A DNA stretch of 32,000 nt from contig NC_020304.1 in assembly GCF_000341395.1 (NCBI RefSeq), positions 1,530,001 to 1,562,000 of the forward strand. The letters are read 5' to 3'. Below are positions 1 through 25,884 of this stretch, in pieces. Each line of letters starts with the position of its first letter. Position 1 is the first letter of the stretch. Origin of the DNA: Desulfocapsa sulfexigens DSM 10523 (GTDB lineage Bacteria > Desulfobacterota > Desulfobulbia > Desulfobulbales > Desulfocapsaceae). The translations under genes and the position numbers were made by a program. The notes under the pieces were generated by a model. That model was not told the origin of the DNA. It worked only from the letters and a program-made list of their open reading frames with translations, and did no database searches.

Positions 1-1
1 G

Positions 2-196
2 GACAGTACGGCCCTTGGTGTTGTAATTAAAAGTTTTAAATGGTTGCGACAGGCCGATAACGGAAATGGAGAACTGGGCCTTTGCAGTGTCAATGACAAG
101 ATAATGAGCCTCCTGCAGTTGACTCGAATGGATAGAGTTTTTCTCGTTTTTCCCGATAGTCAGGAAGCAATAAAAACAATAACTGAATCCAGATGA
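2..196 (+). CDS. STAS-domain anti-sigma-factor antagonist (RsbV/SpoIIAA-like), 5'-truncated by the window edge
   Basis: The frame is open from base 2 to TGA 194-196. It is missing from the ORF track because it has no start in the window. It reads DSTALGVVIKSFKWLRQADNGNGELGLCSVNDKIMSLLQLTRMDRVFLVFPDSQEAIKTITESR. DSTxLG matches the phospho-serine motif of RsbV/SpoIIAA, and the tail is STAS-like. The stop overlaps the next start (ATGA 193-196). Confidence 0.75.
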   Translation, partial: DSTALGVVIKSFKWLRQADNGNGELGLCSVNDKIMSLLQLTRMDRVFLVFPDSQEAIKTITESR

Positions 197-636
197 GTTC
201 TCCTGAAAGTCACTATTTACAACTGATTATTCCAAGCGAAAAGGAGGACTCTCGCCTTATTGGCAGGGCCGTGTATTCATTTTGTCTTCATATGGGATTT
301 GATGAGGTTCAAAGTTATCAGATTGAGTTGGCAACGGTTGAGGTTACACATAATATTGTTGGTCACGCCTATGATAATTGTCCCGACTGTGTGATCGAGC
401 TTCATGCGCAGGGATTGGCTGACAGGATTATTTTCACCATAATTGATAACGGTAAATCTGCAGACGCTTTTGCGTTCCCTGCCTGTTGTCCCGTTGATCC
501 GGGGAGTGCGATTGACAGGTTGCCGGAGTCTTCCATGGGACTCTATATTATAGCTTCTGTTATGGATACCGTGGAGTACGAGGTGTATGAAAATTCTAAT
601 ATACTGACCATGATGAAGTATCTGCCCAAATCATGA
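193..636 (+). CDS. Anti-sigma regulatory factor, RsbW/SpoIIAB-type serine protein kinase (HATPase_c_2)
   Basis: The 147-aa ORF has an N-box-like ATVEVTHNIVGHAY, a G1-like IIDNGKS and a G2-like GMGLYIIASVMD. Its size is typical of RsbW/SpoIIAB. It shares ATGA overlaps with both neighbours (193-196 and 633-636). Confidence 0.8.
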   Translation: MSSPESHYLQLIIPSEKEDSRLIGRAVYSFCLHMGFDEVQSYQIELATVEVTHNIVGHAYDNCPDCVIELHAQGLADRIIFTIIDNGKSADAFAFPACCPVDPGSAIDRLPESSMGLYIIASVMDTVEYEVYENSNILTMMKYLPKS

Positions 637-2924
637 ACGTTAACGGGTTCTTTTCTCAAAAAAACTGGTTAGCTCCTGTTGTTATTGGTTGTCTGCTGCT
701 GACCACTCCTCTATTCCTCTCAGGAGTTATCACCCGCCTTACCACCAAAGAGCAGTTTTTTTTCGCCTGGGGACTGATCTTTCTGGTTCTTGTTTTACGG
801 AAGGTGGCCCATCATTTTTCTGTCTTTTTTGGTATCCTTATTTCCTTCTGCACTCTGTTTCTGCTGAGCCGATATTTCTTTTTTCGTCTGAGTTCGACCC
901 TGCTTTACACCTCAACTCTGGAGTTTTTCTTTATTCTGGTTCTTTTTGCGGCGGAAATCTACGGTATGTTTATTCAGGTGATGGGGATGATCATCAATGT
1001 AATGCCTCTGTATCGACCGGCAGTGCAATCCATTGAACTTAGTGATCCCGATCTCCCCGTTGTCGATGTCCTTATTCCCACCTACAATGAGCCGGAACAG
1101 ATGGTTGCCATTACCGCCAGTGCCTGTACGCTTTTTGATTATCCTCGGGAAAAACTCAACATTTATATTCTCGATGATGGAGGAACAACTCAGAAACGTA
1201 ATGCTGCTGACCCGAAAAGTGCCGCCGCTGCCCTCGTTCGTCACGAAACCCTCAAGGTGCTGGCTGAATATCTTGAAGTGAATTACCTGACCAGAGAGGA
1301 AAATATATCTGCAAAGGCAGGAAATATTAATGCCGCGCTCTACACAAGCGACGATGGTCAGCAACATCCCAGTGGAGATCTAGTCCTGGTTCTGGACTGT
1401 GATCACGTGCCCACAAGGGATTTTCTTCAGAATACGGTTGGCTACTTTTTGAAAGATCCGAAGCTGTTTCTGGTACAGACTCCGCATTTCTTTATTAACC
1501 CTGACCCGGTGGAAAAGAATCTCGATACCTTCAATAAGATTCCGGGAGATAATGTGATGTTTTACGGGAAGGTACTTCCCGGACTTGATTTATGGAATGC
1601 GGCGTTTTTTTGCGGTTCTGCCGCTGTGCTCCGCAGAAGCTGTCTCGATGAAGTTGGAGGTATCGTAGGGGAAACCATCACCGAAGATGCGGAAACTGCT
1701 TTGACCATGCATGGTCGGGGGTACAATTCTGTCTATGTTGGCAAACCAATGGTTTGCGGACTCTGTCCAGAAACTTTTGAGGACTTTATAATTCAGCGAA
1801 ACAGATGGGCTCAGGGGATGGCTCAGATTTTGTTGCTTAAGAATCCTCTTTTTGCCCGTGGACTCAGTCTGATTCAGCGACTTTGTTATCTGAACTCTGC
1901 CGGATTCTGGTTTTTCAGTTTTTCCAGGCTGATGTTTATGCTGGCCCCGTTTTTTTATCTTTATGGAGATCTGCAGATATATCATGCAACCCTGTTACAG
2001 TGTCTGGCCTATCCCATCCCGTACATGATTTTGTCCATGATTGTGACAAATTTCATGTACGGTGCAGTGCGGCATCCGTTCTTTTCAGAGCTCTATGAAA
2101 CTGCCATGAGTTTTTATAATGTCCCGGCAATTTTGAGTGTTTTGCGTAATCCCCGTTCTCCTCAGTTTAAGGTAACTCCAAAGGACACCAGCCTTGCCGA
2201 GGATTCGGTCAGCCCGCTGGCGACTCCCTTTTACATAATGCTTGGGCTTTTTGCCGCCATGTATCCGGTTGCCATGTATAGGGCCGTCACTAATCCACAG
2301 TTTCTTGGTTCCATTATTATCTGTACTGTCTGGGGCACTTTTAATTTTCTTCTTTTGCTCCTCTGTCTCGGGGTGGTATGGGAAAGAAGACAGATCAGGA
2401 AAAAATACCGTATGCCCGTGAAGGAACCGATTCGTCTGAGGGTTCAAGATAGCGGACAGGACGGTTGGCTGAACGGTCTGGCCACGGATCTTTCAGAAGA
2501 AGGCATGGGAATTATCCTGGATGGAAAGAGATTAGTGTCCGAAGGGGCGATGATAGAGATCGAGACCGAAAACAGTGCTGGAAGGCACTTTTTGTTTACT
2601 GCCGAAGTTGTCAGGATAATGAAACATGGGAATGGGGTCCAGCTGGGTTGCCAGTATCAATTTGAAGATGAGGAAAGTTTTCTTGCTATCACTAACTATC
2701 TGTATGGTGAAAGTGACAGGTGGGAGAAGTTATGGAAAGGGCGTCAGCACAAGGTACCCATTGTTGCCGGGTTCTTCTTTGTTCTGAAACTTGGTTTTAC
2801 GGGAACGTATCACCACTTCATAGGGTTGGCTCGAATTTTTTGGAAAAAATTACATATATATCAGGAGAAGATATGGAGCAGGTTTGTTGCAAAAAAAACA
2901 AAACGTTCTGGTTGTTCCTATTAG
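633..2924 (+). CDS. bcsA: Cellulose synthase catalytic subunit (UDP-forming), GT2 with C-terminal PilZ domain
   Basis: The 763-aa multi-TM protein carries the GT2 processive motifs ILDDGG, LDCDH, ITEDAETAL and QRNRWAQG (QxxRW). The PilZ c-di-GMP motifs RRQIR (RxxxR) and DLSEEGMG (DxSxxG) are present. Confidence 0.95.
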   Translation: MNVNGFFSQKNWLAPVVIGCLLLTTPLFLSGVITRLTTKEQFFFAWGLIFLVLVLRKVAHHFSVFFGILISFCTLFLLSRYFFFRLSSTLLYTSTLEFFFILVLFAAEIYGMFIQVMGMIINVMPLYRPAVQSIELSDPDLPVVDVLIPTYNEPEQMVAITASACTLFDYPREKLNIYILDDGGTTQKRNAADPKSAAAALVRHETLKVLAEYLEVNYLTREENISAKAGNINAALYTSDDGQQHPSGDLVLVLDCDHVPTRDFLQNTVGYFLKDPKLFLVQTPHFFINPDPVEKNLDTFNKIPGDNVMFYGKVLPGLDLWNAAFFCGSAAVLRRSCLDEVGGIVGETITEDAETALTMHGRGYNSVYVGKPMVCGLCPETFEDFIIQRNRWAQGMAQILLLKNPLFARGLSLIQRLCYLNSAGFWFFSFSRLMFMLAPFFYLYGDLQIYHATLLQCLAYPIPYMILSMIVTNFMYGAVRHPFFSELYETAMSFYNVPAILSVLRNPRSPQFKVTPKDTSLAEDSVSPLATPFYIMLGLFAAMYPVAMYRAVTNPQFLGSIIICTVWGTFNFLLLLLCLGVVWERRQIRKKYRMPVKEPIRLRVQDSGQDGWLNGLATDLSEEGMGIILDGKRLVSEGAMIEIETENSAGRHFLFTAEVVRIMKHGNGVQLGCQYQFEDEESFLAITNYLYGESDRWEKLWKGRQHKVPIVAGFFFVLKLGFTGTYHHFIGLARIFWKKLHIYQEKIWSRFVAKKTKRSGCSY

Positions 2925-5113
2925 CCGGGAGCCTTTTGTCTGTCCTGTTGCTCAGGACCGTTCCTGCGTACTGCCAGGAGCAGCTCAGGATTCCTCTAAC
3001 CAAGTTTAACGCACCGGGAATTGTAAAACTCACCAATAGCGACGATAGCTATAGTCTTAAAATTGCAACACCAAAGCGCTGGCAGGTTGAGGATGCAAGC
3101 CTGGAGCTTGCTTATGTCAACTCAACGGCCCTTTTGCCCACCCGTTCCCGTCTGGTTATCCTTTTTAACGACTATCCCCTGGCCCAGGTGACTCTGGAAG
3201 CAGACGCTCCAGAAGGGCTTATTACCGTAGCCATACCTGGCCGTCTCTTTAAGGTAGGCTATAACGACTTGAAGATTCAAGTGGCACAGGCGTTTAAAGA
3301 GGATGGTTGTATTCCCTCAAACCCGCCTGAGGTGTGGACAACTCTAGAGTTTATTGATTCAACCCTTGAATTTTTCTATACCCGAAAAGAAGTACCTTTG
3401 AGCCTGGCATCCGTTGCAGATTTCCTCTTTGATCCGAAAATAAGCGAGAAGAATAAAGTCCATATTGTGACGGAAACCACCGAAAACAGAGATGTATCCC
3501 TGGCAGCCTTAACTGCTGCTGCCGTTGCCCTGCGTTTTGATTATCGTCCTGTACAGTTTTCCACTGGGCAGGCGTTGTTGCCGGGGAGAGATAACATCGT
3601 TATTGGTAAGCGTTCATTTCTCCAAAAAATTACAGGAAGTGAGACCGTTCAAGGAGATATGGGAATATTTCCCATGCCAGAGGGGGATGGTACCATAGAT
3701 CGTTTACATGGACTGATCTATCTGGGGGGAGGGGATGCTGAGGAAATTCGACAAAGTGTTGAAGCTTTTTCCATTCTTTCCCTGCCACTGCCAAATGTGC
3801 AGTTCTGTGATATCACTGAGGTTCGGTTACCCCCGATTTCTTCCTATTCGGGGAAAAACAGGCTTGCTCCTGAAAAACGCTATACCTTCCGAGAGCTTGG
3901 GTTGGCGACGACAACATTTCGTGGACAGCACACCGATCCAGTGTCGGTCCAATTTACCCTGCCCACAAATTTTTTACTTGAGGGGAATCGGGATATTCTC
4001 CTTCGCCTGGATTTTTCCTATGGAGCTGCTCTGCGTGAAGATTCTGTATTCTCCCTGGCGGTAAATGGAAAGTTTGTCTCTTCAATTCCTCTCAGCTCGC
4101 CGACGGGGGGGCAGTATCAGGGGTATACCGTTCGTTTGCCTCTCAGCTATTTTAGACCTGGCAGTAATGTCTTTCAGCTTGATGCCGTCATGACACCGCT
4201 GCATACGACAGCCTGTGAGGCGCTGCAAACCGACCATCTGGCCTTGACACTTTTTGAGAGCTCAACAATTCAGGTGCCAGAAATGTTCCAGTGGGTCAAG
4301 CTGCCCCAGCTCAGTTATCTCTTTAATGATGGCTTTCCTCTTACCGCTGCTCCGGATTTCTCGCAAACCAGTGTAGTACTGGCACAGAGAGATGAAAGAA
4401 TTCTGGCAGCAGCGCTCAATGTTATTGCAGGAATAGTTCAGAAGACAGGGGTGTTACCCTATGGCCTGACAGTTACCGATGCAGTATCAGAAAGTGAGGC
4501 CAACAATCTTCTGGTCATTGGTTCACGGGAAGGTTTAGGTGAAAATATTCTCCATGCCTCTCCACTGGCAAAGAATATTACACTGCCTGTTCATGGCAGG
4601 TTACCTGGAACTCTGCGTGTTGTAGATTGGAAGGACAGGTTGTGGCAAATGCTGTTTGATGAAGTGCCTGAACCTGGCACCATTGCACCTGATATAGCTA
4701 CTCTGGGGACTGATATTCGATTCAGACCGCAACAGGCTGTCCTCTGTGAGTTCGAGTCACCATTCAGTCCCATGAAGAGCGTGGTACTGCTCATTGCTGA
4801 AGATCCTGATGATGTCCTTCAGGCCTCCCTGCTGCTGCAGGAAAATGAGGTGGCTCAGCAATGTGATAACGGCTTTGTTGTCATCGATTTTGATGGTAGA
4901 AAACCGGTGGTGCAGCAGGCTGACCTGATTCCATCCTATTCCGTAGGCGAGATAACAGCCTACAACCGCATAAGCTATCTTATAGACAAGTACCGTTGGT
5001 CTTTTATTGCGCTTCTTACCGGTCTGCTGGCTTTTATATCCCTGGGCTTAACGATTCTTTTGAAAAGACGACGTCGCAATCGACTACAGGCGATGAACAT
5101 GGAAGAGGAATAA
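2873..5113 (+). CDS. bcsB: Cellulose synthase regulatory (periplasmic) subunit BcsB
   Basis: This large periplasmic protein follows bcsA directly. I chose the start at ATG 2873, preceded by AGGAG at 2864-2868, which gives the signal peptide MEQVCCKKNKTFWLFLLAGSLLSVLLLRTVPAYC. A single C-terminal TM anchor plus basic tail (LTGLLAFISLGLTILLKRRRRNR) is typical of BcsB. The ORF-track start at 2720 lies inside bcsA and has no RBS. Confidence 0.85.
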   Translation: MEQVCCKKNKTFWLFLLAGSLLSVLLLRTVPAYCQEQLRIPLTKFNAPGIVKLTNSDDSYSLKIATPKRWQVEDASLELAYVNSTALLPTRSRLVILFNDYPLAQVTLEADAPEGLITVAIPGRLFKVGYNDLKIQVAQAFKEDGCIPSNPPEVWTTLEFIDSTLEFFYTRKEVPLSLASVADFLFDPKISEKNKVHIVTETTENRDVSLAALTAAAVALRFDYRPVQFSTGQALLPGRDNIVIGKRSFLQKITGSETVQGDMGIFPMPEGDGTIDRLHGLIYLGGGDAEEIRQSVEAFSILSLPLPNVQFCDITEVRLPPISSYSGKNRLAPEKRYTFRELGLATTTFRGQHTDPVSVQFTLPTNFLLEGNRDILLRLDFSYGAALREDSVFSLAVNGKFVSSIPLSSPTGGQYQGYTVRLPLSYFRPGSNVFQLDAVMTPLHTTACEALQTDHLALTLFESSTIQVPEMFQWVKLPQLSYLFNDGFPLTAAPDFSQTSVVLAQRDERILAAALNVIAGIVQKTGVLPYGLTVTDAVSESEANNLLVIGSREGLGENILHASPLAKNITLPVHGRLPGTLRVVDWKDRLWQMLFDEVPEPGTIAPDIATLGTDIRFRPQQAVLCEFESPFSPMKSVVLLIAEDPDDVLQASLLLQENEVAQQCDNGFVVIDFDGRKPVVQQADLIPSYSVGEITAYNRISYLIDKYRWSFIALLTGLLAFISLGLTILLKRRRRNRLQAMNMEEE

Positions 5114-6249
5114 TGTTCTGTTGCAGACTCACTGTCTTTCTGCCCATGTTACTCTTTCTCTGTTGCCTGCGTCCAGTTTGCGCTGCGGAACCGGGCACGT
5201 GGGCAGGTTTTAAGGAAGAATTTATCACCGCCGAGGGACGGGTGATTGATCGTCATCAACAAGGCATCAGTCATTCCGAAGGACAGGGCTACAGTATGCT
5301 CCTGGCAGTAGCATTTGACGATCGTAAAACATTTTCTCTGCTCTGGCAGTGGACGAAAGGTCATCTTCAGGTAAGAAAGACGGATGCTCTCAGCGCCTGG
5401 AGCTGGGGAAAATTACCCAACGGAGCGATGGCACCCATCGATTTTAACAATGCCAGTGATGGGGATATCTGCATCGCATGGGCACTTTTGCTGGCCAGGG
5501 AGAAATGGAACCTGCCGACTCTGCAGGATGAAGCGAGCAGGATACTGTCAAGTATTCGGAGCTATCTGTTGCTGGAAAAATTTGGCAAGACGCTGCTTCT
5601 TCCAGGGTATTATGGATTTGCGCATACCGATACGGTGACAGTCAATCCTTCCTATCTGGTTCTTCCTGCCTTCAAGGTGTTTGGCAGATACGGGGACAGG
5701 GTTCTCTGGCAGCGGGTGTATGATGAGAGCCTTTCATTATTGAAAGAGACGTCCTTTGGCAGCTGGCAACTTCCTGCAGACTGGCTTTTTCTGAGTGAGG
5801 ATGGTGTTACGCTTCTTGCCGAAAAACCACCTCTTTTTGGCTATGAGGCCATTCGAGTGTTTCTCTGGACCTGTTGGGATGATTTCCCCGTCAGCCTTCC
5901 AGGGACAAAGATGTTAGTGGATTTGATCGAATCCAGTGGCAGGTTTCCAGTAACTGTTGACTTGAATACCGACAGCTTCAGTGAGCAGGATGCCCCTGGA
6001 GGATTCGTCGCGATAGCTGCAAACTGTGCCAGGCAACTGGATAGAAAAAAACTGGCGAAAACCTTGTGGCTGCAGGCTGAACAAAAAATCCAGCAGGAAG
6101 GGGGGATTATTATTCACAGGTTCTCTATCTTCTGGCCAGTACCCGGAGGATTCCATGAGTTGTCTGAGTGGAATCTCTTTTGTAATTGCAGGACTCTGCT
6201 GGAGTTACCTGCTTCCCGCTACGGGAATGGCTCAGACCCCACTCTCTGA
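5113..6249 (+). CDS. bcsZ: Endo-1,4-beta-glucanase BcsZ (glycoside hydrolase family 8), with a probable frameshift in the 3' end
   Basis: The start at ATG 5113 overlaps the bcsB stop (TAATG) and gives the signal peptide MFCCRLTVFLPMLLFLCCLRPVCA. The catalytic-acid motif HSEGQGY is present, and ASDGDICIAWALLLAREKW fits the GH8 PROSITE-type signature. The last ~48 aa of the ORF as given look unnatural. A different frame gives a GH8-like C-terminus that ends at 6158 (see findings). Confidence 0.85.
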   Translation: MFCCRLTVFLPMLLFLCCLRPVCAAEPGTWAGFKEEFITAEGRVIDRHQQGISHSEGQGYSMLLAVAFDDRKTFSLLWQWTKGHLQVRKTDALSAWSWGKLPNGAMAPIDFNNASDGDICIAWALLLAREKWNLPTLQDEASRILSSIRSYLLLEKFGKTLLLPGYYGFAHTDTVTVNPSYLVLPAFKVFGRYGDRVLWQRVYDESLSLLKETSFGSWQLPADWLFLSEDGVTLLAEKPPLFGYEAIRVFLWTCWDDFPVSLPGTKMLVDLIESSGRFPVTVDLNTDSFSEQDAPGGFVAIAANCARQLDRKKLAKTLWLQAEQKIQQEGGIIIHRFSIFWPVPGGFHELSEWNLFCNCRTLLELPASRYGNGSDPTL

Positions 6250-8944
6250 AAAAAAAGTACATAATCAGGCAGCTGTTGTGTACCAGAAAGAGCAGCAATC
6301 CGTCCTGAAGTCCACAAACAGAACTGTAGTCAGGGAATCTGTTGAACAGAGTCCGGCCAGAGTATCCAGAACCCCGCAGCAGTTTCTGCGCAGTTTACCT
6401 TCTCCTTCATCAGAGGATACACAGGAGGCAGCTGCAGATCCGTTGGCAGCTGTCCTGGCCTATGGCTGGCAGGAATATGGGCTGGAGAACTATGCTCAGG
6501 CAAAAAAGTTCTTTTTACAGGCAGTTATTTCGAAAAACGTTGAAAATCGCCGTAATGCTGAATATGGCCTGATGTATAGCTATCTGAAACTCGGTGAAAC
6601 AGATTCCGCTCTGCCTCTGCTGCAACATTTCGTTGCCCGGGGTGAGCAACTTGAATCGACAGCCCCGGTTCTGGCTGCACTTCTCTTTGATCGGGGAGAT
6701 ATTGAAGCTCTTCAGGAATTACTTCCGAAGCTCTCCCCGGCCGACCAGAAAGAGTGGCGGGAGCGAATTGTTTTTGCCCAGTTTCAAGACGCTCTGGTGG
6801 CATTGAATGAAGGCAGCAGGCAGGATGAAGTGAGGAATTTTCTCCAGCAATACAGACCCGTCCTTGAAGAGTGTCGGCAGCAGGAACAGTTTTTTCGTCT
6901 GGCTACCCTTTTTATGAAGGACAGTCCTTACCTGGCAAAGAATATCTTCGCAGATTTGAGGAAATGTTTGCCGGAGGATCATCACTGGCAGGAACGGGTT
7001 CTCCGTGAACAGTTGCAGGTAATGAGTAATAACGAGCTGTTTACAGCGGTATCGATTCCATTCGATGGAACAGTATCGGAGTCGACCTGGAAGCGCTTGC
7101 TCAAGGAAACCACGTGGCAGAGATTGGAGCAGCTTGAGCCGAAGGATCCAGTCTACGATTCTTTTGTCCAGGCACTCTACGAGTTGGATCCGAACAATCC
7201 TGAAGCGGCTTCAATGGCAGCCTGGTCCTGTTATCAGCGAGGAGAGTATGCTTGTGCCGGAGATATTTTCTCTACTCTGCTGCGCAATAATCCAACGGAT
7301 GATACACTGCTCGGCCTTGCTTACACTCTGCAGAAAAAAGGTGAATCAGCTGAAGCCCTGTACCTGCTCGATCAGCATTCCGACAGGAAAAGTGAACTCC
7401 TCAATCAACTCCGCTATGATCTTCATGCAACTCTGGGGGGAAATTTTTATCTGAGCAAAGACTATGAGAAAGCAGTCGTGCACCTGGAGCTGGCTCTGAT
7501 CCAGCGGCCAGAGAACGTGGACCTTGAGCAGATGCTCCTCTGGAGTCGCTTTCATCTGGGGGAGAGCAAGCCATTAGTGGAGTTTCTCTGGCAGCAGTAT
7601 GAACAGGATGAGGCGGCCGATACGGCAATATCACTTTCTCATGTGCTTGGAGTTATAGAGGATCCTGAGTTTACAAAAGAGGTGATGGCACGTTTTGCAG
7701 AATCAGAGAAAGCAGAGGTACGGAAAGTAGCTGGAGAGTACGCTTTTCGGCAGAACCATCCGGTACTGGCGGACCAGATTTATCAGGGGCCGGGACCCTA
7801 TGCTGGAAGTGCTGCGCCAGCACTTGATAGCTTGTTTCACTTTCGCAGCAAGGGGGGAGATGAGGGTACCTCCAGTCTCAATGCGGCAACCCTTGTTGCG
7901 AGACAAACGTTTTCCAGTCATTCCGGAAAAACCTGGTCGATTGCTATCTTCCCTCTGTCCATTGATTCTGGATCCCTGGCGGCAGACGTTCAGGTTGGAA
8001 GTGCATTTCGCTCGCCCGATCAATCACAGGTTCGGCCAGAGCTGTGGGAGGAAGATGCTTTTGCCTTGGGATGGCGCGGTGGTTTGCAGATTGAAGGGGA
8101 GCTGGACTGGGATATTGGGATTGGTAGTACACCCCTCAATGGAGTTATTTCTCCGACTCTTGTCGGTAGGTTGCAGGGCAGTGGCTCCGATTGGGGCTTT
8201 GCCTTGGAAAGGGATTCCGTCAAGGAGTCCATGCTTTCATGGCTTGGTCAAACGGATCCGTACAGTGGACAGGCGTGGGGGAGGGTAGTAGAGACAAAGC
8301 TTGGTGGACATAAAACGATTTCTCTCAATGACTGGTGGCTGGCCGTAGAAGGACAGTATGGCTGGTATAATGGGGAGCGTGTGGAACAAAACACTTCTTT
8401 GACTGTATCGCTGAGTGGCGGGTATACCGAGGACTGGGATGATTTTGAACAGTCAACCGGACTCTTTCTCTTCGCTCGCGGCTTTGAGCGTAACTCTAAT
8501 TTTTATACCTTTGGGCATGGAGGCTATTACAGCCCTGAGCAACAAATTATTGCCGGACCATTTTTTCGCTTAGTGACATCAGTAGCCACCAATTATTGGC
8601 TGGAGGCCTCCTGTTCTGCAGGCCTTAATTATCGTAAAACCGACGACGCACCCCGTTACGCCAGGCTTGGTGCTGTCAACGTTGGCGCAGAAGATCCTGG
8701 CTGGGATGATCTGCTTGGAACATACGCCGGGGAAAGTGACACCGGGCTGGGTCTGGATGCGCGGGTTCGTGGTATTCTGCCGCTATCAAATGGATGGTTT
8801 ATCGGTGGAGATGCTTCAATTAATAATGTGGCTGATTTTACCCAGTGGCAGGTTGCTGTAGCGCTTCGTTATCGTTTCGGTAAAGGAATGGGGCTTGGCT
8901 TACCAGAGAGGGATCTTTCAATGTTAACAGGTCTGGTTCAATGA
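6155..8944 (+). CDS. bcsC: Cellulose synthase operon protein C (TPR repeats plus C-terminal outer-membrane beta-barrel)
   Basis: I chose the start at ATG 6155, preceded by GGAGGA at 6145-6150, which gives the signal peptide MSCLSGISFVIAGLCWSYLLPATGMAQ. The N-terminal ~550 aa are TPR-like helical repeats. The C-terminal part is Gly/aromatic-rich alternating beta-strand sequence containing FGHGGYYSPEQ (BcsC_C-like) and ending ...VAVALRYRF. Confidence 0.8.
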   Translation: MSCLSGISFVIAGLCWSYLLPATGMAQTPLSEKKVHNQAAVVYQKEQQSVLKSTNRTVVRESVEQSPARVSRTPQQFLRSLPSPSSEDTQEAAADPLAAVLAYGWQEYGLENYAQAKKFFLQAVISKNVENRRNAEYGLMYSYLKLGETDSALPLLQHFVARGEQLESTAPVLAALLFDRGDIEALQELLPKLSPADQKEWRERIVFAQFQDALVALNEGSRQDEVRNFLQQYRPVLEECRQQEQFFRLATLFMKDSPYLAKNIFADLRKCLPEDHHWQERVLREQLQVMSNNELFTAVSIPFDGTVSESTWKRLLKETTWQRLEQLEPKDPVYDSFVQALYELDPNNPEAASMAAWSCYQRGEYACAGDIFSTLLRNNPTDDTLLGLAYTLQKKGESAEALYLLDQHSDRKSELLNQLRYDLHATLGGNFYLSKDYEKAVVHLELALIQRPENVDLEQMLLWSRFHLGESKPLVEFLWQQYEQDEAADTAISLSHVLGVIEDPEFTKEVMARFAESEKAEVRKVAGEYAFRQNHPVLADQIYQGPGPYAGSAAPALDSLFHFRSKGGDEGTSSLNAATLVARQTFSSHSGKTWSIAIFPLSIDSGSLAADVQVGSAFRSPDQSQVRPELWEEDAFALGWRGGLQIEGELDWDIGIGSTPLNGVISPTLVGRLQGSGSDWGFALERDSVKESMLSWLGQTDPYSGQAWGRVVETKLGGHKTISLNDWWLAVEGQYGWYNGERVEQNTSLTVSLSGGYTEDWDDFEQSTGLFLFARGFERNSNFYTFGHGGYYSPEQQIIAGPFFRLVTSVATNYWLEASCSAGLNYRKTDDAPRYARLGAVNVGAEDPGWDDLLGTYAGESDTGLGLDARVRGILPLSNGWFIGGDASINNVADFTQWQVAVALRYRFGKGMGLGLPERDLSMLTGLVQ

Positions 8945-10158
8945 GTGATGTGACAGCAATAGCGGATTTTACAGATAGCAGGATTCTTGTTGTTGATGAC
9001 AACCCGGTCAATAGAGAGCTTTTGGCATCAATTGTGCGAAATGCTGGTTATGGTGTTGTCACTGCTATCGGAGGCAAGGAAGCGCTGGAACTGGTAAGGC
9101 AGCATCCTTTCGACCTTATTTTGCTTGATATCGTAATGCCGGAAATGGATGGCTTTGCGGTGTGTAAGTCCCTGCAGGAGGACCTGCAAACCAGAGACGT
9201 ACCTATCATAATGGTTTCTTCTCTTGATCTTTCTGAAACGAAAATTCACTGTTTTGATCTGGGTGCCATCGATTATATAACCAAACCCTTTCACAGGGGA
9301 GAAGTTCTTGCCAGAATACGCTCACAACTCGGTATTAAACACCTGACAGCCTCTCTCCAAAAGAGCAATAAGAAGCTCCAGGAGAGACAGAATGTTGTTG
9401 AGCAGGATCTGATGGCAGCAGCAGCAATTCAACGGGCATTGCTGCCGGAACGTATTCCGTTCACCGATCGCCTTCAGGTAGAATACGTCTTTACTCCCTG
9501 TGAGCGTATCGGGGGCGATATCTTCAATGTTTTTGCTCTTGATGATCATTCTGTCGGGATATACATAGTCGATGTCTGCGGCCATGGAGTACCCGCTGCG
9601 ATGATTGCAACGCTGGTTTCCCAGGCCATGTCGCAGAGTGGGAATGTTATCTGTTCCTTGTTCACAGAGGATAAGTGCTCGACCATACAAAGCCCGCTAC
9701 AGGTACTTGAACGGCTTGACAGGCTCTTTCCGATTGAACGTTTTGATCGTTATTTTACCATATCGTATATGGTTCTTGATCTGCGTGATGGGTCATACAG
9801 CTACAGCAGTGCCGGACATCCTCCTATTCTGCTGCAGAAAAAAAATGGAGAGGTTGTTTTTTTAGAAGCCGGTGGACCGATAATTGGTCTGGGTGAGTTC
9901 GCCCCTCGGCGGGAAGCGGATTCAGGGCAACTTACTCCTGGAGACAGACTCTTTTTTTATACCGATGGTATTATTGAACTTGAAAATGCGGTGGGAGAGA
10001 TGTTCGGTGTGGAAGGGATGAAATTACTGGTGAAGCAACAGAAAGATCTCCCTCTTGGTTGCTATTCTTCAGCCATCGCTCAAGGGCTGGAAAAATTTTC
10101 CCACGGTTCTTCTGTAAATGATGATATCAGCTTACTTTGTCTTGAATATTTAGGCTAA
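8941..10158 (+). CDS. Response-regulator receiver fused to a PP2C/SpoIIE-family serine phosphatase (RsbU/RsbY-like)
   Basis: The N-terminal REC domain shows ILVVDDNPVNRELL, the phospho-acceptor context DLILLDIVMPEMDG, and ITKP. A coiled linker is followed by a PP2C/SpoIIE domain (GGDIFNV, YIVDVCGHGVPAAM, LFFYTDGIIE, NDDISLLCLEY). The start overlaps the bcsC stop (ATGA 8941-8944). Confidence 0.9.
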   Translation: MSDVTAIADFTDSRILVVDDNPVNRELLASIVRNAGYGVVTAIGGKEALELVRQHPFDLILLDIVMPEMDGFAVCKSLQEDLQTRDVPIIMVSSLDLSETKIHCFDLGAIDYITKPFHRGEVLARIRSQLGIKHLTASLQKSNKKLQERQNVVEQDLMAAAAIQRALLPERIPFTDRLQVEYVFTPCERIGGDIFNVFALDDHSVGIYIVDVCGHGVPAAMIATLVSQAMSQSGNVICSLFTEDKCSTIQSPLQVLERLDRLFPIERFDRYFTISYMVLDLRDGSYSYSSAGHPPILLQKKNGEVVFLEAGGPIIGLGEFAPRREADSGQLTPGDRLFFYTDGIIELENAVGEMFGVEGMKLLVKQQKDLPLGCYSSAIAQGLEKFSHGSSVNDDISLLCLEYLG

Positions 10159-10216: not shown

Positions 10217-11626
10217 ATGAGCACTGGACATTTGTTATCGCAAGCCCATTGTTTTCTTTTTTGTCTGCTGAGTCTTGTCTCTTTCTCAGCTTGCAGCCAT
10301 ATTGTTCAGGACGATGTCCAGCCATCTGTTGTTGCCGAACCATCCTATACCATCAGCCACCACCAAGCCCTTGAGAAGCTCCCGACTAAATGGTGGCAGG
10401 TGTTTGATGATCCACTTCTTGACGCCTATATAGAACAGGCCCTGGCGAATAATTTTACCCTCCAGGAAGGCTTTGCAAGACTGAAACAGGCGCGTTCCAT
10501 TCAAAATCAGGCCGGTTCTCAGCTTTATCCAACGCTGGATGGCCGGGTTCGGGCGGAATCGGAGTGGGAAGCGGAGAATACTCGAACTGACAGTAACAGA
10601 ATAGAGCTGGATCTGTCCTGGGAAGTGGATCTCTGGGGTCGACTTTCTTCAGTTGCACAGGCAACATCCTTTGAAACCTTTGCTGCCGAAGACGAGCTTC
10701 AGGGACTGGCTCTGCTCCTCAGTGTCGAGGTGGCAGATACTTACTTCCAGCTTGTTGTGCAGTATCTTTACCAGCAGTTGCTGCAACGTCAGATAGAGGC
10801 TAATACAATTTCTCTTAATGTGATAAGGCTTCGCTTTGCAAATGGCCTGGTCTCTCTTGTCGATGTTTACCAGCAGAAACAGCTTCTTGCCGCTGTCAAG
10901 GCAGAACTCCCCGTCAGTGAAGCACGAAATATTATTCTTCAGAACAGGCTTCATGTGCTTCTTGGACAACCTCCGGAATCAACTCCCCTGGTGTTTCGTC
11001 AAACCTTTCCTGAAATTCCCGCCCTGCCGATGCTTGGGATCCCCGCCGATCTGCTGCAAAACAGGCCCGATCTCAGACAGTTGCAGAGAGAACTGGTTGC
11101 CGCGGATTACCGGGTGGCCGAGGCTGTGGCTGATCGTCTGCCTGCTTTGAAAATTGGAGGGTCTGCAGCATTTATCAGTGGCGACTTTATCACTGCTCTC
11201 TTTGCAGATGCCCTGGCGACAATTGTTGACTGGGGAGGGAAAAAGAGTGAAGTGGAGAAAAAGAAGGCGATGGTGGAAGAAAAAACAGCCCGTTATTCCC
11301 AGAGATATCTAGTGGCCATCGAGGAGGTGGAGAACAGTCTCTGGCAGGAACGAAAGCATGAACAGTTACTCACTGCTCTTGCGGAACAGCTGATGATCTC
11401 AAAGGCAACGCTGCGCGAAAGCAGGAGTCGATATATCCAGGGAATGACGGATTATATCCCTGTTCTTACAGCGTTAGTCTCATTTCAAAAACTGGAAATT
11501 AATATCCTGCAGCGCAAGCAGGAAAAAATTTCCTACCGGCTTCTTCTCTACAGGGCTCTGGGCACTGATGTCCTGGGTTCTGATCGCGATGCTCTACTAA
11601 TTGATAACTCAAAAAATCTCCTATGA
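10217..11626 (+). CDS. RND efflux outer-membrane factor lipoprotein (NodT/TolC family)
   Basis: The 469-aa protein has a signal peptide with a lipobox-like SFSAC. Its two-repeat OEP architecture includes conserved WW..F.D..L, LDLSWEVDLWGR, NRPDLR and LYRALG motifs. Confidence 0.85.
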   Translation: MSTGHLLSQAHCFLFCLLSLVSFSACSHIVQDDVQPSVVAEPSYTISHHQALEKLPTKWWQVFDDPLLDAYIEQALANNFTLQEGFARLKQARSIQNQAGSQLYPTLDGRVRAESEWEAENTRTDSNRIELDLSWEVDLWGRLSSVAQATSFETFAAEDELQGLALLLSVEVADTYFQLVVQYLYQQLLQRQIEANTISLNVIRLRFANGLVSLVDVYQQKQLLAAVKAELPVSEARNIILQNRLHVLLGQPPESTPLVFRQTFPEIPALPMLGIPADLLQNRPDLRQLQRELVAADYRVAEAVADRLPALKIGGSAAFISGDFITALFADALATIVDWGGKKSEVEKKKAMVEEKTARYSQRYLVAIEEVENSLWQERKHEQLLTALAEQLMISKATLRESRSRYIQGMTDYIPVLTALVSFQKLEINILQRKQEKISYRLLLYRALGTDVLGSDRDALLIDNSKNLL

Positions 11627-12795
11627 AAACCTTTCTCTCGTTCCTTGTTTTGATTCTGGCGGTAGCAGTGTCATTCTGGTTATACGCGAATAAACCGCAG
11701 ACGAAAAAGAGTAAACCCGAGCGCCCTGTTCCAATGGTGAGAACCATACTAGTTCAGCCGACGAATGAGGCCGTGGTGTTTGAGGCCGCTGGTTTAGTGA
11801 TTCCGGCTCGGGAAGTGGAATTGCAGACTGAGGTGGAAGGGCGCATTATTGAACAGAATACTGAGCTTGTTCCAGGTGGGATTGTTGCTGAGGGGGAAAT
11901 GCTGATTCAGATTGATCCCCTCGACTACCGTCTGCAGGTGAGCGAGCGCGAAGCGGAACTGGCCACGGCTCGTTATGAACTTGAGGTCGAAGAGGGGAGA
12001 CAGATCATTGCCCGTGAGGAATGGAGCATCCTCGAGCAGGAGCTTTTGGGAGATAAGGTTAGTAAGCATCTGGCGCTGCGTGAGCCACACTTGAGAAACA
12101 GTCATGCCCGCCTTGAGGCCGCTGAGAGTCGTCTTGCTGCAGCAAAGCTTGCAGAGAAACGGACTACCATTCGTGCCCCTTTTAATGGTCTGATCCTTAA
12201 AGAGTCCGTTGAGACAGGACAGTTTGTTGGCAGGCAGACAGTGATTGCAGCCCTAGTCTCCACGGATCAGTTTTGGGTTCAGGCCTCGGTGCCTCTCTCT
12301 CTCCTTGATAGATTGCAGTTTCCGGACGGGCAGGGAGGGAAAGGCAGTGCTGCTCAAATTGTGCTCGACAAAGGATACGGAGGGAAACCGACCCTGCGTG
12401 AGGGCACAATTTTTAAGCTTCTGCCAGATCTTGATCCCAAGAGTCGTATGGCCAGACTGCTGATTGAAATTCCAGATCCCTTTAACCTTGATAAAGAAAT
12501 ACAGGGAAATCTGGGAGGGAAAATACTCCTCGGTAGCTATGTAAAGGTGCAGTTGAATGCTGGTGAATTTCCCGATGTGTATGTGGTACCTCGTGCAGCA
12601 CTGCGTGAAGGTGACCTGCTGTGGCTGATATCCGCAGAAGGGCGGTTGGATATACGTCCGGTAAAGGTTCTGTGGCGACGCATTGATGAGGTTCTGGTTA
12701 CTGCCGAAGAGGCTCTTGATGAGCCGATTGTTGTCAGCCGTCTGGTTTCACCCGTAACTGGGATGCAGATTCGCACCGACGCGCACAGGAAATAG
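11623..12795 (+). CDS. RND efflux periplasmic adaptor (membrane fusion protein, HlyD family)
   Basis: The 390-aa protein has an N-terminal TM anchor, a lipoyl-like segment, a coiled-coil hairpin (LQVSEREAELATARYELEVEE...LEAAESRLAAAKL...TTIRAPFNG) and a beta-barrel domain. An ATGA overlap links it to the upstream OMF gene. Confidence 0.85.
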   Translation: MKTFLSFLVLILAVAVSFWLYANKPQTKKSKPERPVPMVRTILVQPTNEAVVFEAAGLVIPAREVELQTEVEGRIIEQNTELVPGGIVAEGEMLIQIDPLDYRLQVSEREAELATARYELEVEEGRQIIAREEWSILEQELLGDKVSKHLALREPHLRNSHARLEAAESRLAAAKLAEKRTTIRAPFNGLILKESVETGQFVGRQTVIAALVSTDQFWVQASVPLSLLDRLQFPDGQGGKGSAAQIVLDKGYGGKPTLREGTIFKLLPDLDPKSRMARLLIEIPDPFNLDKEIQGNLGGKILLGSYVKVQLNAGEFPDVYVVPRAALREGDLLWLISAEGRLDIRPVKVLWRRIDEVLVTAEEALDEPIVVSRLVSPVTGMQIRTDAHRK

Positions 12796-12807
12796 AAGGA
12801 CAGTTAT

Positions 12808-15800
12808 ATGAGCATACTACCCTCTAAAGAACAGGGGCTGATAGCCTGGATGGCCTCTAATCCTGTGGCTGCCAATCTGCTGATGCTGCTGTTCGTCATC
12901 GGTGGTCTCCTTGCTGCAGGCCGGATAACCCAGGAGGTTTTTCCGAGTTATGCTCTTGATATTGTAACGGTCTCTGTTCGTTACCCTGGCGCCAGTCCTG
13001 AAGAGGTGGAAGAGGGGGTTGTTCTGGCTGTCGAAGAGGAGATCAGGGCATTGGATAATGTGGAGCGGGTGACCTCGGTTTCCATGGAAGGTAATGCCTC
13101 GATTAGTGTGGAATTGCTTTCAGGTGCTGATCCCAATAGCAGTCTCCAGGAAATTAAAAACGGCATTGACAGGATTAGCACTTTTCCTGGTGATGTGGAA
13201 AAACCTCTGGTCAGCCTCGCAACGAGGCGACGGGAGGTGCTTCGCCTTGCCCTTTATGGTGACATTGATGAGGGCTCCCTCTTCAGTCTGGTTGAAACGA
13301 TTCGGTCAGAACTGCTTGATATCACTGAGATTGCCCAGGTAGAACTGAATGGAACCAGAGACCCTGAACTTTCCATTGAGATCTCCAGAGACATGCTCAG
13401 GGCTCACAATCTCAGCTTAGAGGAAGTGGCCGATACCATTAAAGAACGGGCAGTGGATGTGCCTGCCGGTGGAATAAAGAGTCAGGGTGGTGAGGTGCTG
13501 TTACGAACCTCGGAACGACGGGAAGTGGCCAGCGAATTTTCTGATCTGGTACTGGTTAGCAGAGAGGATGGAACCAAGCTCATTCTCGGGGAAGTCGCTG
13601 AGTTGCATCAGGGGTTTGAGGAGAGTGATCGCGAGGCCTGGTATAACGGGAAACGGGCAGCCCTGCTTTATGTTTATCGAACTGGAGACCAGACTCCAAT
13701 TGACATTTCCAATGCTGTTCATGCCTATATGGATAAGCGTATTCCTACTCTTCCTCCCTCTGTGCAGCTCACGGCCTACAGGGATAGATCGGAGCTGTAT
13801 AAGGATCGAATGGAGCTCCTGCTGACTAACGGAGTATTCGGTCTATGCCTGGTACTGCTCACCCTCGGTCTTTTTCTTGAGCCGCGTCTTGCGTTCTGGG
13901 TCTCAATGGGGGTGCCCATCTCCGTTATCGGTTCTTTTCTTATACTCTATTTTATTGGTGGCAGTCTCAACATGATCTCCATGTTTGCCTTTATTATCAC
14001 GCTGGGGATTGTAGTTGATGATGCCGTGGTCGTTGGTGAGAATATTTTCTATAAACGGAGACAGGGAATGGAGCCTTTACGGGCTTCCATTGAAGGGGCA
14101 CGGGAAATGGCGGCTCCTGTCGTTATAGCTGTCGCTACCAATATTTTCGCTTTTCTTCCTCTGCTCTTTGTCTCAGGATCCACCGGTCGCTTCTTTGCAA
14201 TTATGCCTGCAGTGGTGATTGCGGTATTTCTGGTTTCGCTGATTGAGTGTCTGTATGTGCTTCCAGCTCATCTCAGTTATCGCAGGAAGGAGCGGAAGGG
14301 GAAAATGTTCCAATTGCTGGAGCAGGTACCTCGCTTTTGTGAACAGTGGCTTGATCGTTTTGTGAGCGGTCCCTTTGCAAGGATTCTGCGCTGGAACCTT
14401 TCGTTTCGGTATCTGGTTTCTGCCCTTGGTCTGGCTGTGCTGATTGTGGCCTACTCCTATTGGGACAGTGGTCATATTAATTTTTCATTCAGACCAGACA
14501 TTCAGACGGACAGTGTTGACGCCGAGGTAGAATTGCCCTACGGAGTGAATATGGATGAGGTAAAAGAAATTACCCGTCTTGTCGAGGAGGGTGGCAAACG
14601 GGCGGTTGAAAAAAGTGGAGACAGTGAAATCCTGGTGGGAATACGGACTGATATCGGTCGTGGTGGGGCTAATCGTGCTGAGGTCTCCATCACTCTGGTG
14701 CCTCAGGAACAACGAAAAATTACCACCCGGGAGTTCAGTGTTCTGTGGAAAAAAGAGGTTGGGGAGATTGCAGGCCTCGAGAAACTGTTTTTTGATTATC
14801 TGATGGGGCCGGGCGGCTCGGCGGCCATCAATGTGGAACTCACTCATCCGGATCCGCAAACCCTTGAACTCGCTGCAGCGGATCTGGCAGAAGCTATTTC
14901 ACAGTATAGTGGGGTCACCGATGTGAATGACGGCTTCGCACGGGGCAAGGTACAGTATGATTTCAAGATGCTTCCCGAAGGGAAGGCTGTTGGGTTGACT
15001 GCGCAGGATCTTGGCAGTCAAATCAGGCATGCCTTTTATGGAGCGGAGGCATTGCGGCAACAGCAGGGCAGAAATGAATTGAAGGTTGTTGTCCGTCTTC
15101 CTCGTGCAGAGAGAAGCTCCCTCTTTCACCTGGAGCAGCTGCTGATCCGAACACCTGATGGTGGGGAAATCCCTCTGGAGCGTGCAGCAAGAATAATCCC
15201 CAGTCGGGCTTACACCGAGATCAACCGTGTTGATGGAAAGCGGGTTCTCAGCGTGACAGCCAATGTGGTGGCAGGTAAGTCCAATGAGAATAAAATTCTG
15301 GACAGTTTGAAACGGGAATACTTACCCGAGTTGCTTGCAAACTACAGTGGGCTGAATTATTCCTTTCAGGGGCAGCAGCGTGAAAAACGCATGGCCGTGC
15401 ATGATCTTCTGATGGGGATTGCTTTAATGATGCCAGCGATTTTCTGTCTCCTTGCCATTCTTTTTAGGAGCTACGGGCAGGCCCTGCTGGTAATGATTTC
15501 CATTCCATTCGGTCTGGTCAGTGCCCTTTTCGGCCATATTATTATGGGGTACAGCCTCTCTATTATTTCCATATTCGGGATGATTGCTCTCTGCGGGGTA
15601 GTAATTAATGGCGGGCTGGTGTTTACGGTGACAGCCAATCGGTACCGAGGTGAGGGGAAAACAGTAGCCGAGGCAGCATTTATGGCTGCAACACGGAGGT
15701 TCCGTCCTATCATACTCACCTCGCTCACTACTTTTTTTGGTCTGGCTCCAATGATATTTGAGCAGTCTGTGCAGGCCCGTTTTCTCATTCCCATGGCCAT

Positions 15801-15912
15801 TTCACTGGGGTACGGAATTCTTTTCTCAACAGCGATTATCCTTTTTCTCATGCCTGCATTTTACCTGATTTATGATGACGTCCTTGGGCTGATGAGGAAT
15901 AGGAAAAGTTGA
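12808..15912 (+). CDS. RND efflux inner-membrane transporter (AcrB/AcrD/AcrF family)
   Basis: The 1034-aa protein has a 12-TM architecture with two large periplasmic loops. The TM4 motif LGIVVDDAVVVGENI is AcrB-like (DD), not the CzcA-type DFG..DGA. An AAGGA RBS lies upstream of the ATG. Confidence 0.95.
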   Translation: MSILPSKEQGLIAWMASNPVAANLLMLLFVIGGLLAAGRITQEVFPSYALDIVTVSVRYPGASPEEVEEGVVLAVEEEIRALDNVERVTSVSMEGNASISVELLSGADPNSSLQEIKNGIDRISTFPGDVEKPLVSLATRRREVLRLALYGDIDEGSLFSLVETIRSELLDITEIAQVELNGTRDPELSIEISRDMLRAHNLSLEEVADTIKERAVDVPAGGIKSQGGEVLLRTSERREVASEFSDLVLVSREDGTKLILGEVAELHQGFEESDREAWYNGKRAALLYVYRTGDQTPIDISNAVHAYMDKRIPTLPPSVQLTAYRDRSELYKDRMELLLTNGVFGLCLVLLTLGLFLEPRLAFWVSMGVPISVIGSFLILYFIGGSLNMISMFAFIITLGIVVDDAVVVGENIFYKRRQGMEPLRASIEGAREMAAPVVIAVATNIFAFLPLLFVSGSTGRFFAIMPAVVIAVFLVSLIECLYVLPAHLSYRRKERKGKMFQLLEQVPRFCEQWLDRFVSGPFARILRWNLSFRYLVSALGLAVLIVAYSYWDSGHINFSFRPDIQTDSVDAEVELPYGVNMDEVKEITRLVEEGGKRAVEKSGDSEILVGIRTDIGRGGANRAEVSITLVPQEQRKITTREFSVLWKKEVGEIAGLEKLFFDYLMGPGGSAAINVELTHPDPQTLELAAADLAEAISQYSGVTDVNDGFARGKVQYDFKMLPEGKAVGLTAQDLGSQIRHAFYGAEALRQQQGRNELKVVVRLPRAERSSLFHLEQLLIRTPDGGEIPLERAARIIPSRAYTEINRVDGKRVLSVTANVVAGKSNENKILDSLKREYLPELLANYSGLNYSFQGQQREKRMAVHDLLMGIALMMPAIFCLLAILFRSYGQALLVMISIPFGLVSALFGHIIMGYSLSIISIFGMIALCGVVINGGLVFTVTANRYRGEGKTVAEAAFMAATRRFRPIILTSLTTFFGLAPMIFEQSVQARFLIPMAISLGYGILFSTAIILFLMPAFYLIYDDVLGLMRNRKS

Positions 15913-21093: not shown

Positions 21094-21102
21094 GGGAATA
21101 TC

Positions 21103-22830: not shown

Positions 22831-22876
22831 GGTGTCTCCTCAGGGTAAATGATAATGAAAATTATAATCTCAATAG

Positions 22877-22904
22877 ATTATAGATTCTTCCATTAAAAGA
22901 GCAA
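22877..22904 (-). promoter_or_regulatory. Candidate sigma-70 promoter for aor
   Basis: The minus strand reads TTGCTC-N16-TATAAT, with the -35 at 22904-22899 and the -10 at 22882-22877. A second TATAAT lies at 22866-22861. Together with the palindrome at 22864-22881, this gives a ~40-nt leader. Confidence 0.4.
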
Positions 22905-22928
22905 GAAGTATTCGACTGAAACTGCTAT

Positions 22929-25848: not shown

Positions 25849-25884
25849 TATTACTGAAGTATTGTGCTCCTAGAGAAACGGGTT

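Follow-up and report, generated by a model that had tools for sequence, protein, structure and literature searches.

Introduction

Bacterial cellulose synthase is a textbook example of an enzyme activated by cyclic di-GMP (c-di-GMP), and cellulose synthase operons are assigned to the Romling and Galperin classes by type-defining accessory genes: bcsD for type I, bcsE and bcsG for type II, and bcsK for type III. Switches in which a kinase and a phosphatase set the phosphorylation state of a small STAS-type protein have been described for other polysaccharide and matrix systems. The STAS protein SypA of Vibrio fischeri is active as an output in its unphosphorylated form, and its target is still unknown (PMC8256260, PMC11112999). 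HsbA of Pseudomonas acts on FlgM, on a diguanylate cyclase and, according to PMC6482189, on RpoS availability, and the unphosphorylated small protein of the SiaABCD system binds an enzyme and controls matrix production (PMC8457831, PMC7647112). In Anabaena PCC 7120 it is a polysaccharide glycosyltransferase, not a sigma factor, that a STAS domain controls, and the non-phosphorylatable form is active (PMC13555669). Here we describe a 32-kb stretch of the Desulfocapsa sulfexigens DSM 10523 chromosome (NC_020304.1, positions 1,530,001 to 1,562,000; hereafter the window) in which genes for a STAS protein, an RsbW/SpoIIAB-type serine kinase and a receiver-PP2C phosphatase are joined to both ends of a bcsABZC cellulose synthase operon. 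The host belongs to the Desulfobulbales within the Thermodesulfobacteriota.

On sequence evidence, we read the conserved seven-gene operon as a complete, apparently active partner-switching module that would be dedicated to the control of cellulose secretion by BcsABZC, and we give this reading a probability of about 0.5. The full-text literature searched, which did not cover the 2015 operon-classification review, yielded no account of a partner switch built into a bcs operon, and the terms STAS, anti-sigma and Desulfo are absent from the Bcs review PMC8892547; an earlier note on this DNA had likewise known of no such switch among the listed features of bcs operons. None of the switch components is unusual by itself; what appears to be undescribed is their conserved placement in a cellulose synthase operon, and likewise the link of the wider kinase clade to glucan enzymes.

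Results

A partner-switching module is joined to the bcsABZC genes

The gene order STAS, kinase, bcsA, bcsB, bcsZ, bcsC and REC/PP2C phosphatase, proposed in the earlier note, was matched by the open reading frame (ORF) listing and by Pfam and NCBIfam scans, which recovered the STAS, HATPase_c_2, SpoIIE and Response_reg domains (STAS at the Pfam level through the full-length gene of contig L003; loci retrieved for comparison carry L numbers). The genes are chained by overlapping stop and start codons. ATGA junctions were read directly at 193–196 between the STAS and kinase genes, at 633–636 between the kinase gene and bcsA, and at 8941–8944 between bcsC and the phosphatase gene, and a TAATG junction joins bcsB and bcsZ at 5111–5115. 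The bcsA and bcsB genes share 52 nt, bcsB beginning with the ATG at 2873 behind an AGGAG sequence, and the ATG of bcsC at 6155 is preceded by the Shine-Dalgarno sequence GGAGG. On re-reading, the chaining claimed in the earlier note stands for every junction it listed; the bcsZ/bcsC junction, which it did not give, is frameshifted in the window record. The kinase and phosphatase genes are separate and lie 8.3 kb apart. The operon has none of bcsD, E, F, G, Q, R and K, and its flanks have none of the type-defining accessory genes either, which leaves only the bcsABZC core and the switch.

The STAS gene starts 160 nt upstream of the window edge. Its visible fragment (2–193) matches the Pfam STAS family with an E value of 4.9e-4, which fails the Pfam cut-off, while the full 118-aa gene, present at positions 329–685 of the 99.99%-identical contig L003 and at 8717–9073 of L001, matches PF01740 and passes TIGR00377. 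The phospho-acceptor motif DSTALG occupies window positions 2–19, the first six visible codons. Its serine, Ser56 of the full protein (FMDSTALG), aligns with the phospho-serine of SpoIIAA, whose structure 1TH8 is the closest solved structure, and both D55 and S56 are invariant among 10 relatives.

The kinase is 100% identical to a D. sulfexigens DSM 10523 protein, and its closest solved structure is Bacillus subtilis RsbW (6M36, E = 8.5e-10). The N-box residues E50 and N54, the G1 residues D85-x-G87 and the G2 residue G116 are invariant across divergent bcs-linked homologues. The protein scores 62 bits against the RsbW and SpoIIAB equivalog models, far under their cut-off of 145, and is therefore RsbW-like rather than an RsbW orthologue. 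The phosphatase translation carries the receiver residues DD19-20, D63 and K115 and the PP2C metal-site motifs GGD, DVCGHG, TDG and NDD, and every bcs-linked phosphatase homologue has GGD, DVxGHG, TDG and DD. BcsA passes the TIGR03030 CelA equivalog (803.8 bits, cut-off 699.1), and its translation contains DDG, DCD, FFCGS, TED and QRNRW together with the c-di-GMP-binding PilZ motifs RRQIR (RxxxR) and DLSEEG (DxSxxG). The four assignments made earlier, a phospho-serine STAS protein, an RsbW/SpoIIAB-type kinase, a BcsA with intact PilZ motifs and a REC-PP2C phosphatase of SpoIIE type, are thus all borne out, and the partner-switching module appears complete and apparently active. BcsB has a short tail past its C-terminal anchor and the N termini of BcsZ and BcsC are signal-peptide-like, leaving BcsA as the only Bcs protein here predicted to have a large cytosolic part.

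The adjacency recurs in three classes of Thermodesulfobacteriota

The joining of switch and bcs genes is conserved and not unique to this genome. Four other Desulfocapsa species, in which BcsC identity falls to 55%, keep the seven-gene order unchanged, as do three more distant loci with BcsA identities of 67% (L027), 66% (L028) and 57% (L029, a metagenome-assembled genome (MAG) of the Desulfobulbaceae). The order is rearranged elsewhere: bcsABZC is followed by REC/PP2C, STAS and kinase genes in a Desulfobacteraceae MAG (L030, BcsA 56%) and in the metagenomic contig L092, and in Desulfonatronum thioautotrophicum (L032, 47%, Desulfovibrionia) a PAS-PAS-PP2C gene, a STAS gene and a kinase gene precede bcsABZC. 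Wherever the kinase gene and bcsA are adjacent, either the two are translationally coupled or the gap between them is under 51 nt. In one further locus (L031, BcsA 49%) a STAS gene at 685–1029 stands directly before bcsA with no kinase gene between them, and lysine replaces the phospho-serine (FMDKTAM). The adjacency spans Desulfobulbia, Desulfobacteria and Desulfovibrionia, and the module is a recurrent, non-universal accessory of bcsABZC in Thermodesulfobacteriota.

Neighbor-joining trees place the bcs-linked modules in one clade and the Desulfonatronum module outside it, suggesting a second, independent recruitment. The genome scan used two very narrow peptide patterns from the kinase alignment, and because these are specific to Desulfocapsa it missed the distant bcs-linked loci, which were recovered through BcsA homologues. 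Most loci were annotated by tblastn with few query proteins. In L006, a Desulfocapsa MAG, the bcsB match (12166–14405) is broken near 13404 into two contiguous parts that are read in different frames, and L035 shows such a split too; it may be a frameshift or an assembly error.

Related modules stand beside other glucan enzymes

The majority of relatives are contiguous modules without bcs genes. A metagenome scan by kinase similarity only yielded 80 loci, 65 of them distinct, which are the closest to one alignment and do not form a random sample. Twenty-four loci had at least 4.5 kb on each side; the taxonomy of many of the metagenomic contigs is unassigned. A glycogen/alpha-glucan phosphorylase gene adjoins the module in 10 of these 24 loci, suggesting that glycogen breakdown is controlled by a phosphorylation switch. 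Six others have a CelA-like GT2 synthase that has no PilZ region, three have bcsA, one has a Wza-like exporter, one has a STAS-PilZ fusion and three have none of these. A polysaccharide-related neighbor or STAS-PilZ fusion was present in 21/24 well-flanked loci as compared to 0/12 outgroup loci, which have a more distant kinase (Fisher p ~4e-7). In the neighbor-joining tree, the STAS and kinase subclades follow the neighboring enzyme, be it bcsA, the CelA-like synthase or glycogen phosphorylase.

The STAS subfamily comprises 2561 database proteins at E <= 1e-10. The best 120 of these 2561 are single-domain proteins only, with no fusions among them, and two further relatives picked from the profile search each lie between a glycogen phosphorylase and a hybrid kinase. 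Over the whole collection, a phosphorylase gene lies beside STAS, kinase and REC/PP2C genes in L010, L037, L043-45, L055-57, L059/60, L077, L097-99, L105, L109, L112, L116 and L117, often accompanied by a hybrid histidine kinase gene and an Hpt gene. The locus L094 (47–11868) has the order 480-aa protein, PilZ-less CelA-like GT2 synthase, GH26-like protein, hybrid kinase, Hpt, REC-PP2C, STAS and kinase, a layout that is repeated in L051/52, L066, L079 and L096. A UDP-glucose pyrophosphorylase gene closes the cluster in L094 and L079. From its gene content, the L094-type cluster looks like an uncharacterized synthase-dependent glycan system under the control of such a switch.

STAS-PilZ fusions of 269–283 aa were found at L049 8966–9817 and L093 8503–9312, and in L074 by similarity. 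Their PilZ motifs, RRRHR (RxxxR) and NISPGG (NxSxxG), are canonical c-di-GMP-binding motifs. Behind each fusion gene come a kinase gene and a REC-PP2C gene, bcs genes are absent from the surroundings, and these loci nest within the bcs-linked clade in both neighbor-joining trees. No mention of a STAS-PilZ architecture was found in the literature searched.

No sigma factor gene accompanies the module

The earlier note had seen no sigma factor gene in the unit, and the extended contigs agree. Upstream of the STAS gene lie a 240-nt spacer, a gene for a 737-aa secreted protein and then unrelated genes; neither these 9 kb of upstream sequence on L001 nor the 32-kb window yielded a sigma factor gene. 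A tblastn search with RpoD, RpoE and SigB as queries, covering 10 kb around the module, was negative for the window and for 116 of 117 related loci; the single sigma-70-family gene was in L012, a distant Chloroflexia outgroup. Diguanylate cyclase genes are absent from the bcs-linked operons (window locus and L027-L030), and GGDEF genes occur close to only two switch loci. In the Desulfonatronum locus a GGDEF gene lies two genes upstream. Hybrid kinase and/or Hpt genes adjoin the module in L006, L010, L027, L029, L094, L116 and L117.

When the upstream regions were aligned, a single block of the spacer proved to be kept among Desulfocapsa species. It has the form TTGTAT-N17-TG-n-TACGCT, lies ~70–115 nt before the STAS start, reads GTTTGTATATTG...TCAGATGATACGCTGA at L003 215–260 and has equivalents in L001 and L005-L008. 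On weak evidence, it looks like a −35/extended −10 promoter of housekeeping type. A consensus promoter and terminator scan of L003 gave counts near the shuffled expectation and was uninformative. Just upstream of the block in L003 and L001 is a palindrome-like element, perfect in L003 (GCCGGAATCCGGC) and with one mismatch in L001 (GCCGGAATCCGGT). Rfam at gathering thresholds gave no riboswitch or leader RNA in the window or in L003. The gene for the 737-aa secreted protein is at L001 6264–8477, with a counterpart at L005 1247–3421 in one other Desulfocapsa species; the C-terminal half of the protein is of low complexity and rich in Gly, Tyr, Asn and Arg, and the protein has no Pfam match.

Gene coordinates, the bcsZ frameshift and neighboring genes

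The bcsZ gene is listed in Table 1 as it is written in the window, where it overlaps bcsC by 95 nt. The window has six G residues at 6100–6105 and L003 has seven, the sole difference between them over 10.6 kb. As a consequence of the six-G reading, bcsZ is shifted after codon ~331: a 47-aa tail of unrelated sequence takes the place of its last ~17 codons, and its ATGA link to bcsC disappears. With seven G residues the BcsZ C terminus reads ...GGDYYSQVLYLLASTRRIP, which includes DYYSQVLYLLA and is kept in other species, and the stop codon TGA at 6156–6158 overlaps the bcsC ATG; in that allele the bcsZ/bcsC junction is therefore ATGA as well. L001 and L002 (96.85% identical) have a single gap relative to the window, and bcsZ is called there at 348/337 aa with an ATGA overlap with bcsC. 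The six-G run reflects either an error in sequencing or a genuine lesion of bcsZ.

Table 1. Genes of the seven-gene operon, in window coordinates
Feature	Coordinates	Strand	Evidence and remarks
STAS gene, 3' part (anti-sigma-antagonist type)	2..196	+	last 64 of 118 codons plus stop; translation, Pfam
RsbW/SpoIIAB-type serine kinase, 147 aa	193..636	+	Pfam HATPase_c_2, E 7.5e-18
bcsA, GT2 plus C-terminal PilZ	633..2924	+	Pfam GT2 families and PilZ; TIGR03030
bcsB	2873..5113	+	Pfam BcsB, E 1e-128
bcsZ, GH8 endoglucanase, as written in the window	5113..6249	+	Pfam GH8, E 4e-58
bcsC, TPR region plus outer-membrane BCSC_C barrel	6155..8944	+	Pfam BCSC_C, E 3e-78
REC plus PP2C/SpoIIE serine phosphatase, 405 aa	8941..10158	+	SpoIIE, E 2e-37; Response_reg, E 4e-30

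The phosphatase gene is followed after 58 nt, on the same strand, by genes for an outer-membrane factor, an HlyD-type adaptor and an AcrB-type resistance-nodulation-division (RND) pump (10217–15912). No terminator-like site was predicted between the phosphatase gene and this trio, and read-through transcription from the bcs operon is possible. The RND trio is not next to bcs in the more distant loci and is therefore probably unrelated to it. Further downstream, what is probably a tungsten/molybdenum cofactor cluster (20058–30075) comprises genes for a ThiF-like protein, an aldehyde:ferredoxin oxidoreductase-like ORF, a MoeA-PBP_like fusion, a second MoeA-like ORF and an unassigned 195-aa ORF. 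The oxidoreductase-like ORF is separated from the MoeA genes by a gene (23065–25848) for a dCache-PAS hybrid histidine kinase that has no obvious partner. We considered this kinase, the only hybrid kinase in the window, as a candidate cognate kinase of the switch and set it aside: it is 13 kb away, and its resemblance to the neighbors of related modules is confined to the generic transmitter core.

Discussion

A proposed second gate on cellulose synthase

In the mechanism that we propose, a histidine-kinase phosphorelay would phosphorylate the receiver of the phosphatase and so set phosphatase activity. The kinase would add phosphate to Ser56 of STAS, the phosphatase would take it off, and the resulting state of STAS would serve as the output, most likely with the unphosphorylated protein as the active form. 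The most likely target would be the glycosyltransferase/PilZ region of BcsA, so that the switch would act as a second gate beside c-di-GMP rather than as a sigma-factor switch. We think it probable that, by one route or another, cellulose output is under the control of the module; that this control acts directly on BcsA through STAS we put at nearly even odds. A direct effect is favored because neither a sigma factor nor a diguanylate cyclase is co-encoded, because BcsA alone would offer a large cytosolic part, and because a STAS-only variant stands beside bcsA and STAS-PilZ fusions occur in the clade. It is favored also by the Anabaena case, where a glycosyltransferase carries a fused STAS domain under the control of a REC-SpoIIE phosphatase (PMC13555669). 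The sister modules at glucan enzymes add to the plausibility of a post-translational checkpoint on the synthase, which the earlier note had suggested as a possibility.

Several points weigh against this reading. BcsA as the target is something that we infer from gene neighborhood alone. The kinase-less variant L031 is a single example, on a contig that ends ~0.7 kb upstream of the STAS gene after a transposase-like fragment. Three bcsABZC operons of similar divergence (45–49%, including that of Desulfacinum) carry no switch, which makes the switch an accessory and not a requirement. The neighbor-joining trees were built without support values. A cytosolic BcsA signature of switch-linked operons was sought by aligning eight linked with three unlinked proteins, and none was found; one insertion is variable in this alignment but is uncorrelated with the presence of the switch. 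Neither an Hpt gene nor a cognate histidine kinase gene was found in the window. The best family matches of the kinase are the anti-sigma factors RsbW and SpoIIAB, and a sigma factor may be encoded elsewhere. The STAS-PilZ fusions are a hint of Rosetta-stone type that the free STAS protein might work with the PilZ domain of BcsA, a weak hint because the PilZ domains of the fusions and of BcsA gave no alignment and have no detectable sequence similarity. The fusion might merely add a c-di-GMP input.

The family matches of the kinase open the way to a classical transcriptional switch, in which the kinase would be the anti-sigma factor of a remote sigma factor and dephosphorylated STAS would free that sigma factor to transcribe the operon and possibly others. 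The kinase and STAS protein do match RsbW/SpoIIAB and SpoIIAA/RsbV best, and switch genes placed inside the operon that they regulate resemble the autoregulated sigB operon, rsbV-rsbW-sigB-rsbX. Classical systems, however, have the sigma gene adjacent, and here no sigma-70-family gene was detected within 10 kb in the window or in any related locus other than one in the outgroup. The kinase stays far below the equivalog cut-off, the module subclades follow the neighboring enzyme, a kinase-less STAS variant persists beside bcsA, and the conserved Desulfocapsa upstream block resembles, weakly, a housekeeping extended −10 promoter. We regard this explanation as unlikely. Chances poorer again attach to an indirect route through c-di-GMP, with STAS or the freed kinase binding a remote diguanylate cyclase or phosphodiesterase and cellulose being affected through the PilZ domain of BcsA. 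The c-di-GMP-binding motifs of BcsA are intact, the Desulfonatronum locus has its GGDEF gene, and the STAS-PilZ fusions tie the STAS clade to c-di-GMP signaling. Pseudomonas offers the precedents SiaC-SiaD and HsbA-HsbD (PMC8457831, PMC6482189). GGDEF genes are, however, near only two switch loci, and sister modules stand at two kinds of enzyme that are not known to sense c-di-GMP, PilZ-less CelA-like synthases and glycogen phosphorylase.

The constant closeness of the kinase gene to bcsA, coupled or within 51 nt wherever the two are adjacent, and the retention of all ATP-binding residues across the clade would also fit direct action of the kinase and phosphatase on one of the Bcs proteins, such as at a cytosolic Ser/Thr of BcsA, with STAS as no more than a competing substrate or kinase inhibitor. 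Phosphorylation of the synthase, and not an exchange of partners, would then be the output. To our knowledge, RsbW-type kinases phosphorylate no substrates other than their STAS partners; moreover, BcsA has no conserved switch-specific Ser/Thr or insertion, and it is STAS, not the kinase, that the L031 variant retains. We consider direct phosphorylation of the synthase very improbable. The poorest odds go to mere co-location, a general stress or carbon-status module inherited with bcs while regulating something else. The STAS subfamily is large, most relatives are found without bcs, and the three unlinked bcsABZC operons do without the module. Against this stands the way in which the module is split around bcsABZC with overlapping stop and start codons. 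The adjacency has also survived rearrangement and a change of the phosphatase sensor domain, it apparently arose at least twice, and the well-flanked relatives are linked to polysaccharide genes or STAS-PilZ fusions at a frequency that the outgroup does not approach.

Direct control of BcsA by STAS could be one case of a broader scheme, a family of sigma-independent switches in which STAS would directly gate PilZ-less CelA-like synthases, glycogen phosphorylase and, at its PilZ-gated active site, BcsA, with the phosphorelay deciding whether glucose units enter storage or an extracellular matrix. Gating would then run parallel to c-di-GMP or replace it, and the STAS-PilZ protein would be the fused form of a STAS-BcsA(PilZ) contact. 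We put this scheme forward tentatively and think it rather doubtful as a whole.

If the proposed control of BcsA is true, a conserved serine-phosphorylation switch would constitute a second, independent control layer on cellulose synthase, and two-component phosphorelays would be tied directly to matrix production. The arrangement also bears on the long-standing question of what SypA, HmpV and other non-canonical STAS proteins of a single domain bind. BcsA would be the sole large cytosolic candidate and BcsA-BcsB activity can be reconstituted in vitro, so that the question of the STAS target is directly testable here. The repeated pairing of the module with glycogen phosphorylase, UDP-glucose pyrophosphorylase and CelA-like synthases would point to phosphorylation control of bacterial glucan flux.

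Comparison with known partner-switching and Bcs regulatory systems

By its protein families this is a partner-switching system, one without a co-encoded sigma factor, the one defining feature that can be checked by synteny. It shares three protein families and the position of the phospho-serine with RsbU/RsbV/RsbW-sigmaB and SpoIIE/SpoIIAA/SpoIIAB-sigmaF of Bacillus. It differs from them in that no sigma gene lies in or near the operon, the kinase falls below the equivalog thresholds and the phosphatase is receiver-controlled. Among regulators of cellulose synthase itself, the PilZ domain of BcsA (its site is kept here), BcsE and BcsQ/BcsR are likewise operon-encoded cytosolic elements that tune BcsA post-translationally, but they do not involve serine phosphorylation and fall outside the STAS, GHKL-kinase and PP2C families.

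SiaABCD of Pseudomonas aeruginosa also combines a PP2C phosphatase, a kinase and a small phospho-protein in a sigma-independent switch; its target is the co-encoded diguanylate cyclase SiaD, whereas the bcs-linked operons encode no cyclase. The HenR/All4160/Alr3423 system of heterocyst polysaccharide in Anabaena PCC 7120 resembles the locus in that a receiver-SpoIIE phosphatase and a kinase set STAS phosphorylation. The Anabaena genes are scattered and their STAS domain is part of the glycosyltransferase, whereas here a free STAS protein is encoded and the genes are joined to a c-di-GMP-sensing bcs operon.

The HptB-HsbR-HsbA pathway of Pseudomonas runs from a hybrid kinase/Hpt relay through a receiver-PP2C protein to STAS phosphorylation and a biofilm output, and the hybrid kinase and Hpt genes beside the switch in relatives such as L094 and L010 extend this likeness. 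HsbR, unlike the phosphatase described here, also carries a kinase domain, and HsbA is not encoded in a polysaccharide synthase operon. SypE/SypA of the Vibrio fischeri syp locus likewise places a phospho-serine STAS protein, an RsbW-like kinase, a PP2C domain and a receiver in a polysaccharide locus without a sigma factor. SypE is a single protein with kinase, receiver and phosphatase parts, whereas here these parts are divided between two proteins encoded at opposite ends of the operon, and syp is an 18-gene Wzx/Wzy-type system as compared to the four-protein, synthase-dependent BcsABZC. By analogy, SypE/SypA and HptB-HsbR-HsbA would be the systems closest in logic to the switch at the Desulfocapsa cellulose synthase operon.

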